A stretch of DNA of 64,000 nucleotides from Clostridia bacterium (GTDB lineage: Bacteria; Bacillota; Clostridia; Oscillospirales; CAG-272), in NCBI GenBank assembly GCA_017462035.1, contig JAFTRY010000013.1:425-64424 (forward strand). The letters run 5' to 3'. The position numbers were made by a program, and so were the translations under genes. Within the stretch, counting starts at the first letter, position 1. The number at the start of each line of letters is the position of its first letter. Of the stretch, positions 31,352 through 36,868 are shown one piece after another. The notes beneath the pieces were generated by a model. The model saw only the letters and a program-made list of their open reading frames with translations. It was not told the DNA's origin and did no database searches.

Positions 31352-32485
31352 ATGAATCTTAATAACCAAATAGACAGCACGGCGTACTTGCAATCCTTGT
31401 TGGATCAGCGGGGGGAAGTGAAGATTCCCGGCGGTGTGTATACCATTTCTCAAACCTTGATTATTTACGACAACACGAAATTGTCTCTTGCTTTTGACGC
31501 GGTAATTCGTCTCGCTGACGGAGCCAACTGCGTGATGCTGAGAAATCAGGCTTGCCAGACTACGGGCAAGAACCGCAATATTCTCGTGGAGGGCGGTACC
31601 TGGGACGGAAATAACAGAGGACAGGCTCCCGATACCAAGCCCGAGGGAAAACCCTATTACTTTGGGGTGATTCTTCGATTCCAGGAGGTTGAGGATCTGA
31701 CGATCCGTGACGTGACCGTAAAGGACCCTTGCCGCTACGCCATGCAGATCATGCATGCGGATCGTTTTACTGTGGACAATATTACCTTTGATTACAATAT
31801 GTATCAGAAGTGTATGGACGGTGTTCACGTGCAGGGTTGGGCAAGGAACGGAATGATCCGCAATATCAAGGGGGCTACCAATGACGACCTAGTTGCCCTG
31901 AACTGTGACGATTACTACGACGACGGAGAGAAGAGAAGCATCAGCCAGGGAGATATTGAAAACGTGGTGGTGGATGGCTTATATGCCGACAATGGGTATA
32001 CCGCTGTTCGTCTGCTCTCCTGCGGAAGCCGCATGAGAAACGTAAAGATCCGAAACGTGTTTGGTACCTACCGCTTGTACGGTGTGTCCTTTACCCAGCA
32101 CGATATTGTTCCCGGAGCACCTGTTTGGTTTGACAATATTGACATTGACGGTATATATTGTGCCAAGCAGCCTCAGGATCCTCCGGTGGATCCCAAATTC
32201 ATTAACGGAATTGACAACTACTATTCAAAGGGCAGTCATGATCGGAATATTCGGAGAAGTCCCATTATTTGGTTTGCCAGAGGGGTCACCTGCGGCAACG
32301 TATCGATTGTCAACGTTCACCGGGATGAGGAGACGGTGACCGAGGCAAATACCATTAAGATCGACCCGAACGTCCGGATCGAAAAGTTGCTCCTACAGAA
32401 TATTACGCAACGATTTCACAATTGTCCCGAGGTTCCGCTCATAAGGAACGAAGGGGACGTTGAAAACTTAATTGAATTGGCATAA
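31352..32485 (+). CDS. Right-handed beta-helix (pectate-lyase-superfamily / GH28-like) protein
   Basis: N-terminus STAYLQSLLDQRGEVKIPGGVYTISQTL and repetitive beta-helix turns (DGVHVQG, NDDLVALN). Confidence 0.6.
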   Translation: MNLNNQIDSTAYLQSLLDQRGEVKIPGGVYTISQTLIIYDNTKLSLAFDAVIRLADGANCVMLRNQACQTTGKNRNILVEGGTWDGNNRGQAPDTKPEGKPYYFGVILRFQEVEDLTIRDVTVKDPCRYAMQIMHADRFTVDNITFDYNMYQKCMDGVHVQGWARNGMIRNIKGATNDDLVALNCDDYYDDGEKRSISQGDIENVVVDGLYADNGYTAVRLLSCGSRMRNVKIRNVFGTYRLYGVSFTQHDIVPGAPVWFDNIDIDGIYCAKQPQDPPVDPKFINGIDNYYSKGSHDRNIRRSPIIWFARGVTCGNVSIVNVHRDEETVTEANTIKIDPNVRIEKLLLQNITQRFHNCPEVPLIRNEGDVENLIELA

Positions 32486-32542: not shown

Positions 32543-33451
32543 TCAGATCGAGTCAATATACCGACAGGCGGCAAGGGCGGCAACGGCACCGTCCGCTGTG
32601 GCGGTGGTGATCTGACGAACACTCTTGGTTCGGCAATCTCCGGCAACAAAAATGCCCGGGGTACGGGTCAGACAGGACTCGTCCGCCATGACGTATCCCG
32701 CCTCATTCAGAGCGGCAACGTCGGCGAAAGGCTCATTTTCGGGTTGTTGACCGATGGCAACGAACAAGCCGTCCGCAGAGATGGCATAATCCATTTCCAG
32801 CTTACTGTTGTGTAGAACAATCTCCTTCAGTTCCTCCTCGCCCACAAGCTCGGTGACAACTGTGTCGTATACCATGGAGACATTGTCTTTCGCTGAGAGC
32901 GCGGTGACCAGCTTAGCTTCTCCGGTCATGAAAGAGAGATTTTGGATGATGGTTACGTGAGTGCAATATTCGCTGAGCATCATTGCCTCCTGAAGTGCTG
33001 TGTTTCCGCCTCCAACCACGGCAACCGACTTGCCGCTGAAAAAGGCACCGTCACATACGGCACAATAGGAAACGCCCTTTCCAACCAGCTCGTCTTCGTT
33101 GGGAAGTCCCAAATGGCGGTGCTTGGAGCCGGCGGCAATGATGACCGCCTTCGCCTCAAATTCGCCCTGATCGGTAACCACAGTCTTTTTCTCTCCTCCG
33201 TCTTGGATTGCCGTAACCTCAGCAAGCTCGATTTCGGCACCGTGCTCCATGACCTGATCCAGCATCATCTGAGCCAGTTCGCTTCCGCTTACCTTCATGA
33301 GAGTGGGGTAATTTTCTACCTGGGGCGAATAGGTGATCTGACCTCCAAAATTTTCTTTTTCGATTAAGAGAACTGATTTATCCGCTCTTCTCGCGTACAG
33401 GGCAGCCGTCATTCCGGCGGGTCCCGCTCCGACAATTATGATATCGTACAT
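32543..33451 (-). CDS. trxB: Thioredoxin-disulfide reductase
   Basis: MYDIIIVGAGPAGMTAALY, redox CAVCDG, GGGNTALQEA. Confidence 0.9.
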   Translation of the reverse strand: MYDIIIVGAGPAGMTAALYARRADKSVLLIEKENFGGQITYSPQVENYPTLMKVSGSELAQMMLDQVMEHGAEIELAEVTAIQDGGEKKTVVTDQGEFEAKAVIIAAGSKHRHLGLPNEDELVGKGVSYCAVCDGAFFSGKSVAVVGGGNTALQEAMMLSEYCTHVTIIQNLSFMTGEAKLVTALSAKDNVSMVYDTVVTELVGEEELKEIVLHNSKLEMDYAISADGLFVAIGQQPENEPFADVAALNEAGYVMADESCLTRTPGIFVAGDCRTKSVRQITTATADGAVAALAACRYIDSI

Positions 33452-33486: not shown

Positions 33487-33525
33487 AAGGCATTGCCGGT
33501 AAATAGGGATTTCCGGCAATGCCTT
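33487..33525 (-). terminator. Strong hairpin between nrdD and trxB, possibly a partial terminator
   Basis: 13-bp perfect stem AAGGCATTGCCGG / CCGGCAATGCCTT. The T-run is weak. Confidence 0.45.
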
Positions 33526-33565: not shown

Positions 33566-36022
33566 TTATGCCTTAATGGAATCTACGAATTTACGGATAT
33601 TGGAGACGTTTTCGATCTTCATCACCGTTCCGTTTGTAATATGGATCAGAGTAGGCGCCTGCTTGATTCCAAAGCGGCTGACCTGGTCGGGAGCTTCGTC
33701 CGCATAGACCTTTGCGTAAGCGATACCTGCCTCGGAGAGGAAGCGCTCAGCCATCTTACAGTTGGGGCAAGTGCGGGTAGCAAAGAGCCAGGTCTGGGTT
33801 CCTTCCATGGTGATCACGGGAGATGCCACGGCGGTGTCCACCGTTTCCTCAGCCTCGCATACGCAGGGCTCCTCCACGGGTACGCTTACGGGAGCTTCCG
33901 CTACGGGAGTACCCACCTCACCGCAGCTCAGATCGGCATGCTTTTCCATAGAGGATGCGATGTTGTAGAGCTTACGGTTCTTATATTCCTCGGACTTACC
34001 GTCGTTCCAGTTCTGAACGGGTCGGTAGTAACCGGTAATACGGCTGTAAACCTCGGTCTTTTCGCCGCAGAAGGGACAGGTGAACTTCTCCCCGGCGATA
34101 TATCCGTGTGCCTTACATACGGAGTAGGTAGGAGACAGGGTATAGTAGGGAAGCTTGTAGTTCTCCGCAATCTTGCGAACCAGGGTAGCCGCCGACTTCC
34201 AGTCGGGAAGCTTCTCGCCTAGGAATGCGTGGAATACGGTACCGGAGGTGTAGAGGGTCTGCAGCTCGTCCTGGATGTCCAGAGCCTCGAAAATATCCTC
34301 GGTATAGCCAACAGGCAGGTGAGAGGAGTTGGTGTAGTAGGGGGTGTTGCCCTTTTCGGAGGCGGTGATGATGGCGGGGAATCTCTTTACGTCGTGCTTT
34401 GCCAGACGGTAAGAGGTAGACTCGGCGGGAGTTGCCTCCAGGTTATAGAGGTCGCCGTACTTTTCCTGGTAATCGGACAGACGCTCTCTCATGTGGTTGA
34501 GTACGTCCTTGGTGAACTGCTGTGCCTCAACGGTGGTGAGATCCTTGCGGACCCAGTTCGCGTTGAGACATGCCTCGTTCATACCAACGAGACCGATGGT
34601 GGAGAAGTGATTGTCAAAGGTTCCCAGGTAACGCTTGGTGTAGGGATACAGACCCTCATCCAGCAGCTTGGTGATGACGGTACGCTTGATCTTCAGAGAA
34701 CGAGCGGCGATGTCCATCTTATGATCCAGTCTCTCGTAGAAATCAGCCTCGTTTTCAGCCAGGTACGCGATACGGGGAACGTTGATGGTAACTACGCCCA
34801 CAGAACCCGTGCTTTCACCGCTTCCGAAGAAGCCACCCGACTTCTTGCGAAGCTCACGAAGATCCAGACGGAGACGGCAGCACATACTTCTGACGTCGCT
34901 GGGCTCCATGTCGCTGTTGATGTAGTTGGAGAAGTAGGGAGTACCGTACTTGGAGGTCATCTCGAACAGCAGACGGTTGTTTTCGGTATCGGACCAGTCA
35001 AAGTTGGAGGTGATGGAGTAGGTGGGGATGGGATACTGGAATCCGCGTCCGTTGGCGTCACCCTCGATCATGGTCTCGATGAACGCCTTGTTGATCATAT
35101 CCATCTCGCGCTTACAATCCTTGTACTTGAAGTTCATCTCCTTGCCGCCCACGATGGCATTCAGCTCAGCGAGGTCAGCGGGAACGACCCAGTCCAGCGT
35201 GATGTTGGAGAAGGGTGCCTGCGTACCCCAACGGGAGGGCGTGTTCACACCGAAGATAAAGGATTCAATGCACTTCTTGACCTGGTCATAGGACAGGTTG
35301 TCTACCTTTACAAAGGGGGCAAGGTATGTATCGAAGGAGGAGAATGCCTGCGCGCCTGCCCACTCATTCTGCATGATGCCGAGGAAGTTGACCATCTGGT
35401 TACACAAAGTAGCCAGGTGACTGGCGGGGGCGGAGGTGATCTTGCCCGTTACACCGCCCAAGCCCTCCTGGATCAGCTGCTTCAGGGACCAACCCGCACA
35501 GTAACCGGTGAGCATAGAGAGGTCGTGGATGTGGATGTCTGCATTGCGGTGAGCGTTGGCGATCTCCTCATCGTAAATTTCGGAAAGCCAATAGTTTGCG
35601 GTAATGGCACCCGAGTTGCTTAAGATCAGACCGCCTACCGAGTAGGTAACCGTAGAGTTTTCCTTGACACGCCAGTCAATGTTCTTTACGTAGCTGTCCA
35701 CGATATCCTTGTAGTCCAGAATGGTGGACTTCATGTTACGCAGCTTTTCTCTCTGCTTTCTGTACAGAATGTAAGCCTTGGCAACGTCGGCGTAGCCCGC
35801 CTGTACCAGTACTGCCTCCACGCTGTCCTGAATATCCTCCACTGCGATCAAGCCTTCCTTGATCTTGGGTTCAAAATCCGCGGTGACCTTCAGAGACAAA
35901 AAGTCGATCACGGAGGGATGGAACTGTTTTTCTTGGGCTTCAAAAGCCAGCTTGATGGCATAGGTGATCTTGGAGAGATCAAAATCAATTACCTTGCCGT
36001 CACGTTTTAAGACCTGATACAT
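33566..36022 (-). CDS. nrdD: Anaerobic ribonucleoside-triphosphate reductase (class III) with C-terminal thioredoxin/glutaredoxin-like domain
   Basis: ATP-cone N-terminus, SMCCRLRLD, Zn ribbon CPFCG and glycyl-radical motif SRITGYYRP. An extra ~130 aa follows, ending in a CPNC thioredoxin-fold domain. Confidence 0.92.
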   Translation of the reverse strand: MYQVLKRDGKVIDFDLSKITYAIKLAFEAQEKQFHPSVIDFLSLKVTADFEPKIKEGLIAVEDIQDSVEAVLVQAGYADVAKAYILYRKQREKLRNMKSTILDYKDIVDSYVKNIDWRVKENSTVTYSVGGLILSNSGAITANYWLSEIYDEEIANAHRNADIHIHDLSMLTGYCAGWSLKQLIQEGLGGVTGKITSAPASHLATLCNQMVNFLGIMQNEWAGAQAFSSFDTYLAPFVKVDNLSYDQVKKCIESFIFGVNTPSRWGTQAPFSNITLDWVVPADLAELNAIVGGKEMNFKYKDCKREMDMINKAFIETMIEGDANGRGFQYPIPTYSITSNFDWSDTENNRLLFEMTSKYGTPYFSNYINSDMEPSDVRSMCCRLRLDLRELRKKSGGFFGSGESTGSVGVVTINVPRIAYLAENEADFYERLDHKMDIAARSLKIKRTVITKLLDEGLYPYTKRYLGTFDNHFSTIGLVGMNEACLNANWVRKDLTTVEAQQFTKDVLNHMRERLSDYQEKYGDLYNLEATPAESTSYRLAKHDVKRFPAIITASEKGNTPYYTNSSHLPVGYTEDIFEALDIQDELQTLYTSGTVFHAFLGEKLPDWKSAATLVRKIAENYKLPYYTLSPTYSVCKAHGYIAGEKFTCPFCGEKTEVYSRITGYYRPVQNWNDGKSEEYKNRKLYNIASSMEKHADLSCGEVGTPVAEAPVSVPVEEPCVCEAEETVDTAVASPVITMEGTQTWLFATRTCPNCKMAERFLSEAGIAYAKVYADEAPDQVSRFGIKQAPTLIHITNGTVMKIENVSNIRKFVDSIKA

Positions 36023-36062: not shown

Positions 36063-36091
36063 AGTATAAAACAAAATCAGACGTTTGTCAA
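36063..36091 (-). promoter_or_regulatory. Promoter of nrdD
   Basis: Minus strand reads TTGACA, 17-nt spacer, TATACT. Confidence 0.6.
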
Positions 36092-36101
36092 TTGTGAGTT
36101 G

Positions 36102-36149
36102 TTACAATATATTGGGTCGAAGATTGGAGAATATCACAATATCTTGTAT
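36102..36149. promoter_or_regulatory. Two NrdR-box-like palindromes
   Basis: TTACAATATATTGGGT (36102-36117) and TCACAATATCTTGTAT (36134-36149). Each matches 13 of 16 positions of the NrdR-box consensus acaCwAtATaTwGtgt. Their starts are 32 bp apart. Confidence 0.6.
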
Positions 36150-36178: not shown

Positions 36179-36868
36179 TCATATGCCGCGAAGGCGCGCG
36201 GAGGGGACGAGAGTCTGTATCTCGGGGAGAAACGCTCTCGTTTCTTCCTCGGAATAGGCGGAAAGCCCCGTTCCGATGAGATCCCCGGAATCGGTAAAGC
36301 TCTGGAGAAAGTATCTTTCAGCTCCCCGAATGATTGTTGCCAGCTCCGTGAGACTTTCCTTTGTGTGAAGCTCACGGACTACCGTTGTGCGGAATTCGTA
36401 GGGAAGTCCGGAGGACATGATCAGACGGATACTTTCTTCGATTCCATCTGGCACGTGATCCAACCCACAGGTGATGGGATAAAGGGGAAGGGCGTTCTTG
36501 ATGTCCATGGCAATGTAATCCACAAGCCCCTCACTTAGCAAGCCGTTGAGCCGTTCTGGGAAGGAGCCGTTGGTATCCAACTTGACCAGAAGCCCAAGAT
36601 CATGAATCTTTCGGCAGAAGCGGGCAAGGTCGGGCTGAAGCAGAGGCTCGCCCCCCGTTACGCATACGCCGTCCAGAATACCTTTTCTTTTTTTTAGGTA
36701 AGAAAAGATCTCCTCCTCGGGAATGGTTTGCGCAGGATCTATGTGGGTCACGAGAGAGGCGTTGTGGCAGAAGGGACAACGAAAATTACAGCCTCCTGTG
36801 AATACGGTGCAGGCTACCTTTTCGGGAAAATCCAAAAGAGTTGTTTTTTGAAAGCCGTGAATCAACAT
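36179..36868 (-). CDS. nrdG: Anaerobic RNR activating protein (radical SAM)
   Basis: CNFRCPFCHN cluster motif plus GVCVTGGEPL. Confidence 0.9.
   Translation of the reverse strand: MLIHGFQKTTLLDFPEKVACTVFTGGCNFRCPFCHNASLVTHIDPAQTIPEEEIFSYLKKRKGILDGVCVTGGEPLLQPDLARFCRKIHDLGLLVKLDTNGSFPERLNGLLSEGLVDYIAMDIKNALPLYPITCGLDHVPDGIEESIRLIMSSGLPYEFRTTVVRELHTKESLTELATIIRGAERYFLQSFTDSGDLIGTGLSAYSEEETRAFLPEIQTLVPSARLRGI

Follow-up and report, generated by a model that had tools for sequence, protein, structure and literature searches.

The window analysed here, a stretch of 64,000 nucleotides from contig JAFTRY010000013.1 of a gut Clostridia bacterium of the order Oscillospirales (a 34-contig assembly, 86% complete), carries on its minus strand three consecutive genes, nrdG, nrdD and a trxB-type gene (Table 1). 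The middle one, written nrdD::trx in the following, encodes an oxygen-sensitive class III ribonucleotide reductase (RNR) whose catalytic core is continued by a predicted thioredoxin-fold domain, and this fusion and its link to trxB are the subject of the present work. The protein has an NRDD domain, a glycyl-radical motif with Zn-ribbon cysteines, and an NrdG activase encoded next to it, as expected of class III. NCBIfam model NF006126 (ribonucleoside-triphosphate reductase; 1131 bits, cut-off 548) spans residues 1-688 only. An earlier, sequence-only reading had described an NrdD ending soon after the glycyl-radical motif SRITGYYRPVQNW, which contains Gly664, followed by a linker of about 54 amino acids (aa) rich in Ala, Pro, Glu and Val and by a 77-aa thioredoxin- or glutaredoxin-like domain, WLFATRTCPNCKMAERFL...APTLIH, with CPNC at C752/C755. 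Both strings are present in the translation, and the fused domain is borne out by a single 818-aa frame and by Pfam, profile comparison, AlphaFold2 and Foldseek alike. Region 33566-33965 comprises the codons of residues 686-818 and the stop.

Table 1. Features of the nrdG-nrdD::trx-trxB locus, with positions in the window and residue numbers of the respective protein.
Feature	Position	Strand	Description	Basis
nrdG	36179..36868	-	229-aa radical S-adenosylmethionine (radical-SAM) activase of class III RNR	TIGR02495 (NrdG2), 210.8 bits (cut-off 131)
Sigma-70-like promoter	36063..36091	-	TTGACA-17-TATACT, in the nrdG-nrdD spacer	Promoter scan, 11/12 positions matched
nrdD::trx	33566..36022	-	818-aa class III RNR with fused thioredoxin-fold domain	Single open frame
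ATP-cone	35747..36016	-	Residues 3-92, allosteric on/off domain	PF03477, E 9.6e-21
NrdD catalytic core and glycyl-radical domain	33965..35662	-	Residues 121-686	PF13597 (NRDD), E 1.9e-189; aligned to T. maritima NrdD 4coi/4u3e
Cys175	35498..35500	-	Beta-A active-site cysteine (Y174-C175)	T. maritima Tyr124-Cys125; invariant in 45 homologues
Finger loop M380-C381-C382-R383	34874..34885	-	Double cysteine	T. maritima SCCR (C329, C330); SMCCRL in 120/120 homologues
Glu529	34436..34438	-	In NLEATPAE, putative proton donor of thiol-type NrdD	T. maritima E495; NLE in 119/120 homologues
Zn-ribbon	34067..34117	-	C636, C649 and C652 (with H639)	T. maritima C..H..CPVC segment; invariant in 45 homologues
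Gly664	34031..34033	-	Glycyl-radical site (SRITGYY)	T. maritima alignment; invariant in 45 homologues
Linker	33800..33961	-	Residues 688-741, about 54 aa, rich in Ala/Pro/Glu/Val, contains CVC	
Thioredoxin-fold domain	33569..33799	-	Residues 742-818, 77 aa	AlphaFold2 model, Foldseek, profile against PDB
C752-P-N-C755	33758..33769	-	Redox motif	119/120 homologues; invariant in two further alignments
A789-P790-T791-L792	33647..33658	-	Cis-proline loop	Invariant; aligns with IPTL/VPTL of thioredoxins
Hairpin	33488..33524	-	16-bp stem with weak U tail in the 114-nt nrdD-trxB spacer; possible partial terminator or stabiliser	
trxB	32543..33451	-	302-aa low-Mr thioredoxin-reductase-type flavoprotein	
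TrxB C130-A-V-C133	33053..33064	-	Redox centre	50/50 orthologues next to fused nrdD
TrxB QNLSFMT	32924..32944	-	At the HRRxxxR site	PDB alignments and orthologue comparison

Active-site residues were assigned through HMMER alignments to solved NrdD structures; overall identity to the T. maritima enzyme is low (E 9e-40). The position of Glu529 is Leu or Tyr in formate-type enzymes, as in those of P. copri (8P23, SILATPAE) and T4 (1H78, SLYSTPAE) and in 9D3X (SVYSTPSE), all three with a single finger-loop cysteine and no Glu. An internal control is provided by the second NrdD of the same genome (contig C22:1271-3397, minus strand, 708 aa), which is accompanied by its own NrdG (C22:725-1258, minus strand) outside the window. 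With SPMGCRSFL, LYGTPAES and RRTCGYLG, this paralogue is, judged by its motifs, a canonical formate-type enzyme (NrdD1). The window enzyme has MCCR and E529 instead of the single-cysteine MGCR without Glu of NrdD1 and, with both Met380 and Glu529 present, also departs from NrdD3, which has QCCR/A without Met or Glu. It does possess the two marks of NrdD2, a third active-site cysteine beside the radical cysteine and an active-site Glu. Taking the definition of Wei 2014 as given in PMC4493059 and PMC9669993, its motifs fit NrdD2, with the formate-associated Met retained. The comparison with formate and thiol types that the sequence-only reading had proposed thus fell largely on the thiol side (double cysteine and E529 versus single cysteine and Tyr/Leu), and Met380 is the part that did not.

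The tail itself is only weakly recognised by family models. Pfam Glutaredoxin matches residues 746-779 with 24.3 bits (gathering score 22.9), and Pfam Thioredoxin (PF00085) matches residues 747-808 with 20 bits, below its cut-off of 23.5. A profile built from 21 diverse tails and compared with the PDB retrieved thioredoxins and Pyrococcus-type glutaredoxin-like proteins (best E 3.5e-8). AlphaFold2 run on the tail alignment returned a minimal thioredoxin topology, beta-alpha-beta-alpha-beta-beta-alpha, with a predicted local distance difference test score (pLDDT) of 91.2; the top Foldseek matches of this model in the PDB were all thioredoxins (probability 1.0, template modelling score 0.7-0.79). 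The invariant positions of the tail comprise L-F-x-T-x-T-C-P-N-C-x-M-A around the CxxC, which in thioredoxin-fold redoxins sits at the N-terminus of helix 1, the Q-A-P-T-L of the cis-proline loop and S-N-I near the C-terminus. Taken together, profile and model identify the tail as a genuine thioredoxin-fold domain. It is not a classical TrxA, having TCPNC instead of WCGPC, 77 aa instead of about 105 with an additional N-terminal beta-alpha unit, and only 20 bits against TIGR01068 (cut-off 96.8). Nor is it an NrdH-redoxin: the NrdH model TIGR02194 is its best NCBIfam match (E 8.6e-7), with 29.1 bits for a cut-off of 85.75, and the motif is CPNC, not CVQC. When 50%-identity representatives were searched with a profile for a free-standing version of the domain, mostly short gene-call fragments of NrdD tails were recovered, some of them starting with MQNWNDGK or MYSRITGYY. 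The one free thioredoxin of the genome (contig C16:13617-13925, plus strand) has an atypical DCPSC instead of WCGPC.

The linker varies freely. Measured in homologues from 25 residues past the radical Gly to 6 before CPNC, the stretch spans 56 aa in the window protein and 27-71 aa elsewhere, without sequence conservation. In the full-length AlphaFold2 model, which is poor (mean pLDDT 66) and was used only for linker disorder, residues 700-734 lack secondary structure and stay below a pLDDT of 50, and are thus predicted to be disordered. Among the matches listed, CPNC always lies 65-66 residues from the C-terminus, and 59-103 residues separate it from the radical Gly. A functional tethered domain would be expected to look like this, with an invariant CPNC and cis-proline carried on a freely varying linker. 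The linker of the window protein contains a CVC at residues 720-722 (33857-33865, minus strand). In 175 linkers, exactly two cysteines occur in 64, often as CxC (CVC, CAC, CDC), three in 15 and none in 59. A role for this CxC as an essential shuttle dithiol, like the C-terminal pair of class I enzymes, was rejected because of the 59 linkers without cysteine; it may be vestigial or serve as an optional relay.

The sequence-only reading had asked how widely the fusion occurs, and it proved to be widely conserved. A search with residues 700-818 yielded 1078 protein clusters, about 790-830 aa long, that combine NRDD with an ATP-cone. They derive from metagenome-assembled genomes (MAGs) of Clostridia, Oscillospiraceae, Ruminococcaceae and Eubacteriales, and all are named only "ribonucleoside triphosphate reductase". 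Those listed of these clusters make up the 120 homologues over which motifs were counted, and the double-cysteine core with Glu accompanies the domain in practically all of them (Table 1). Sampled evenly, about 300 genomes of the order to which the window belongs include about 130 with the domain inside frames of 780-860 aa, and all complete orthologues with at least 80% core identity in that order are fused. A phylum sample of 400 genomes added about 27 more with the fused form, from ten or more families outside the order. A pattern scan of species-representative genomes confirmed at least 596 fused loci; the named hosts are gut or rumen MAGs of Eubacteriales, Oscillospiraceae, Acutalibacteraceae, Ruminococcus and Candidatus Fimenecus, and nine of the listed loci belong to Lentisphaeria/Victivallales gut MAGs whose fused NrdD has about 78% core identity. 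In contrast, the redoxin domain is absent from the NrdD1 paralogue and from the NrdD1 orthologues of the order (frames of roughly 715-840 aa). Two longer proteins that end in the same redoxin domain, P0155 (1041 aa) and P0208 (1314 aa), were also encountered, the first of which resembles an NrdD whose VNTPSRWG motif is followed by an intein-like insert.

Phylogenetic analysis of 133 NrdD cores placed the fused proteins in a single clade (98 in the Shimodaira-Hasegawa-like approximate likelihood ratio test), separated by a long branch from nine unfused relatives about 50% identical to them. The Lentisphaerota sequences are nested within those of Bacillota at three or more places, which points to transfer of the fused nrdD into that phylum. 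The same gene order, nrdG, fused nrdD and trxB, recurs on a 57-kb phage contig (MT835493.1, 43919-51293) that comes from human faeces and is unannotated; its fused NrdD has 802 aa and carries SMCCRL, NLE and CPNC.

The operon nrdG-nrdD::trx-trxB is conserved as well. Of the 60 fused loci in the order sample, 55 have nrdG upstream in the same orientation. Immediately downstream, likewise co-oriented and at most about 500 bp away, with several overlaps, trxB is present in 47 of the 57 loci with room for it; at two further loci it is 2.3-2.9 kb downstream. A second sample gave 66 of 69 Bacillota loci and 5 of 9 Lentisphaerota loci with room (71/78 together). The fused enzyme is the sole detectable RNR in about 109 of the 127 order-sample genomes that carry it; 12 of the 127 also have NrdD1, and 6 also have a class I or II catalytic subunit. 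Within the window's family, 15 genomes have the fused form only, and the two genomes without it have NrdD1. The window's genome, unlike this otherwise mutually replacing pattern, carries both; its RNR-related content consists of two NrdDs, four glycyl-radical enzymes resembling pyruvate formate-lyase (PFL) and the regulator NrdR, and no class I or II RNR was detected in it. As the sole RNR of about 109 genomes, the fused NrdD must be a complete, working enzyme. Because a sole RNR must also be efficient, the tethered domain would be part of the normal catalytic cycle, not an accessory.

The downstream gene had been taken for a thioredoxin reductase (TrxR), and it is indeed of that type. The protein scores 324.5 bits against TIGR01292, just below the curated cut-off of 343.45, its best PDB matches are TrxRs (E 2.7e-72), and it carries the CAVC redox centre, the FAD motifs GAGPAG and GDC and the pyrophosphate motif GGGNTALQEA. 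The start at 33451 is also correct, since the alternative upstream ATG at 33493 is buried in the stem of a hairpin and alignments with homologues begin at about residue 15. The protein departs from ordinary TrxRs at the HRRxxxR site. It was compared with 49 others that adjoin fused nrdD genes: HRR is absent from 40 of these 50 TrxBs, 39 of them, the window's included, having a QNL-type motif and one QDM, and is kept in 10. A solved TrxR, that of Thermosipho africanus (PDB 7JYP), shares QNL. HRRxxxR binds the 2'-phosphate of NADPH (PMC5627308, PMC10880999), so with QNLSFMT in its place NADPH is probably not the donor of TrxB. From this motif, we infer that NADH or another carrier is likelier.

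Replacement of HRRxxxR is shared with the TRi of D. vulgaris, the FFTR of C. pasteurianum and the NADH-preferring TrxR of T. maritima (PMC5627308, PMC10880999), which are likewise TrxB-type proteins with a CxxC. However, TRi has a degenerate pyrophosphate motif whereas the window TrxB keeps GGGNxALQEA, the replacing motif is of the QNLxFLTGE type and not TQ/NGK, and the closest solved relatives of the window TrxB are ordinary TrxRs. A ferredoxin-dependent enzyme of the FFTR type was considered and is not supported, since the window TrxB retains its pyrophosphate motif and FFTR structures are only distantly related to it (6GNA, E 6e-36). The electron path that the sequence-only reading had proposed, in which the fusion and the neighbouring trxB hard-wire a thioredoxin route into the enzyme, stands as far as fusion and adjacency are concerned, both being strongly conserved; NADPH as its source probably does not.

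The architecture, the active-site motifs, the fold, the conservation of fusion and operon, and the sole-RNR status in most carriers are direct observations. A reaction cycle can be proposed around them. NrdG would install the glycyl radical on Gly664, and the radical would move to one of the finger-loop cysteines (C381 or C382) to start ribonucleotide reduction. The two reducing equivalents would come from a cysteine pair formed by beta-A Cys175 and the second finger-loop cysteine, with Glu529 as proton donor, leaving a disulfide as in thioredoxin-dependent NrdD2 enzymes. We infer that the tethered CPNC domain would, once per turnover, re-reduce this disulfide, either in its own subunit or in the partner subunit of the dimer, and would in turn be recharged by the adjoining TrxB-type flavoprotein. 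On sequence grounds we consider it likely that nrdG-nrdD::trx-trxB is a self-contained anaerobic module for deoxyribonucleoside triphosphate (dNTP) synthesis, in which the active-site disulfide is re-reduced by the tethered domain and TrxB does the recharging.

Several observations weigh against this interpretation. The finger-loop Met associated with NrdD1 is kept as M380 and is invariant in 45 homologues, and its equivalent in E. coli NrdD participates in formate-dependent reduction. According to Burnim et al. 2022 (PMC9669993), MCCR+Glu enzymes hold what either reductant needs, and 83% of double-cysteine class III RNRs start the motif with Met. The motifs therefore favour the thiol route while, by themselves, leaving room for formate. 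Unfused MCCR+Glu relatives from the same order, about 50% identical, have the gene order nrdD-nrdG with no trx or trxB nearby, so the motifs do not require a neighbouring redoxin. Formate is probably available to the cell, as PFL-like enzymes are encoded. A search of the same genome with tblastn found no second TrxB, and the sole TrxB may simply be the housekeeping enzyme. Finally, the hairpin between nrdD and trxB is strong (-35.9 kcal/mol, z = -4.6, none of 200 shuffles equally stable in RNA folding), although it was not called by a terminator scan; in most relatives the spacer is shorter than 100 bp or the genes overlap. Co-transcription of nrdD and trxB is thus not certain in the window, and trxB may be partly uncoupled from nrdD here.

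The main alternative is a maintenance or activation role of the tail, in which formate would be the catalytic reductant, acting via Met380 and Cys175, and the tethered thioredoxin would only keep the Zn-ribbon cysteines reduced, or undo adventitious disulfides that arise on contact with oxygen, to allow radical installation by NrdG. The C-terminal cysteines of E. coli NrdD reportedly need reduction by thioredoxin before activation, as described by Padovani, Mulliez and Fontecave in 2001. Besides the invariant Met380 and the PFL-like genes, such a role would suit gut anaerobes, which meet oxygen transiently. However, it would suit NrdD1 equally well, yet no NrdD1 was found to carry the domain, all of whose occurrences (120/120) are on the MCCR+Glu core. 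This restriction weakens the proposal, and so does the invariance of the additional Cys and Glu, neither of which formate chemistry requires. We therefore regard a maintenance role as unlikely.

Another possibility is that the MCCR+Glu core accepts formate or the tethered redoxin according to availability, and that the fusion raises the local level of one donor. Met, double cysteine and Glu do co-occur invariantly, the idea was raised by Burnim et al. 2022 (PMC9669993), and the unfused relatives with the same motifs and no redoxin neighbour are in line with it. Against it, no enzyme with both activities is described in the RNR literature surveyed, and a sole RNR in about 109 of 127 genomes whose link to trxB is kept argues that the thiol route is under selection. 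An enzyme with two reductants is, in our view, quite improbable. That the tail is a mis-assembled or read-through separate gene, or a fusion in decay without function, might be imagined from the fragmented, incomplete assembly and the weak Pfam scores, but the same single open frame and invariant CPNC in hundreds of independent assemblies, among them the roughly 130 in-frame cases of the order sample, and the confident thioredoxin model of the tail rule it out for all practical purposes.

The proposed turnover by a tethered redoxin has relatives among described systems. NrdD2 enzymes (Neisseria bacilliformis; T. maritima 4U3E/4COI; PMC4493059, PMC9669993) share with the window enzyme the beta-A cysteine, the second finger-loop cysteine, the Glu, the glycyl-radical domain and NrdG, and they too are presumed to draw electrons from a thioredoxin-type protein that TrxR recharges. 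They differ in having SCCR without Met and a free thioredoxin, whereas the window enzyme has MCCR, a C-terminally tethered redoxin and trxB in the operon. A precedent for a tethered redoxin is the class I RNR of Facklamia ignava, for which the fused glutaredoxin (Grx) is the working reductant (Rozman Grinberg et al., 2018; PMC6187632). Like the window NrdD, this Grx::ATP-cone::NrdB protein joins a redoxin domain to an RNR subunit; however, the enzyme is of class I and the Grx is N-terminal, glutathione-dependent and placed on the radical-generating subunit. A supplementary table of the same paper (PMC6187632) contains an entry "Glutaredoxin:NrdD" for Lachnospiraceae bacterium TWA4 (WP_082039398.1, subclass NrdDd). 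A redoxin-NrdD fusion has thus been noticed once, in a table that gives no position, context or distribution. This entry is the only NrdD-thioredoxin fusion described in the literature covered, which did not include the text and supplement of Wei et al. 2014; large RNR phylogeny papers treat class III finger loops and C-terminal extensions and do not mention a redoxin fusion. The fusion is common in nature, mechanistically unsurprising and essentially undescribed.

Dedicated redoxins are also found next to other RNRs. NrdH-redoxins of class Ib operons resemble the window domain in length (about 75 aa), Grx-like size, dedication to an RNR, co-encoding and reduction by TrxR. They carry CVQC, whereas the window domain carries CPNC, is structurally nearest to thioredoxins and has a class III enzyme as its fusion partner. 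In Methanosarcina barkeri, Wei and co-workers reportedly found in 2015 that NrdD3 is served by an NrdH-like redoxin and a ferredoxin:disulfide reductase. The methanogen system is likewise a class III RNR with a small Grx/NrdH-like redoxin encoded nearby and a chain that does not depend on NADPH. It differs in its QCCR/A without Met or Glu (PMC9669993), in its separate redoxin and in the use of an Fe-S reductase instead of a TrxB-type flavoprotein.

The RNR literature has yet to settle which reductant serves the large group of class III RNRs with MCCR+Glu (PMC9669993). A redoxin fusion linked to trxB in hundreds of genomes, in most of them as the sole RNR, is the strongest available genomic argument for the use of protein thiols by this group, and the design suggests that this enzyme type uses protein thiols rather than formate. 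For many abundant gut and rumen Oscillospirales, the fused NrdD is the only route to dNTPs. With enzyme and reductant on one polypeptide, it also offers a convenient system for trapping and visualising how a glycyl-radical RNR admits a thioredoxin to its buried active site. A bolder, and in our opinion rather doubtful, extension would be that the tethered redoxin and a TrxB lacking the NADPH site form a complete electron chain that needs neither NADPH nor formate, draws on NADH or a low-potential carrier and drives the sole RNR of more than 100 gut species, MCCR+Glu enzymes in general being driven by protein thiols in vivo. If that were true, formate dependence would be a minority mode among class III RNRs.

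Some local signals may bear on the expression of the locus. As judged by the scan, nrdD appears to possess a good promoter of its own inside the nrdG-nrdD spacer. Just upstream of it, at about 36092-36149 on the minus strand, are two AT-rich palindromes resembling NrdR boxes (putative), and the NrdR gene of the same genome lies on contig C8. On the other side of the locus, convergent with trxB, positions 31352-32485 (plus strand) encode a 377-aa beta-helix protein with a weak match to glycoside hydrolase family 28 (pectinase-like).

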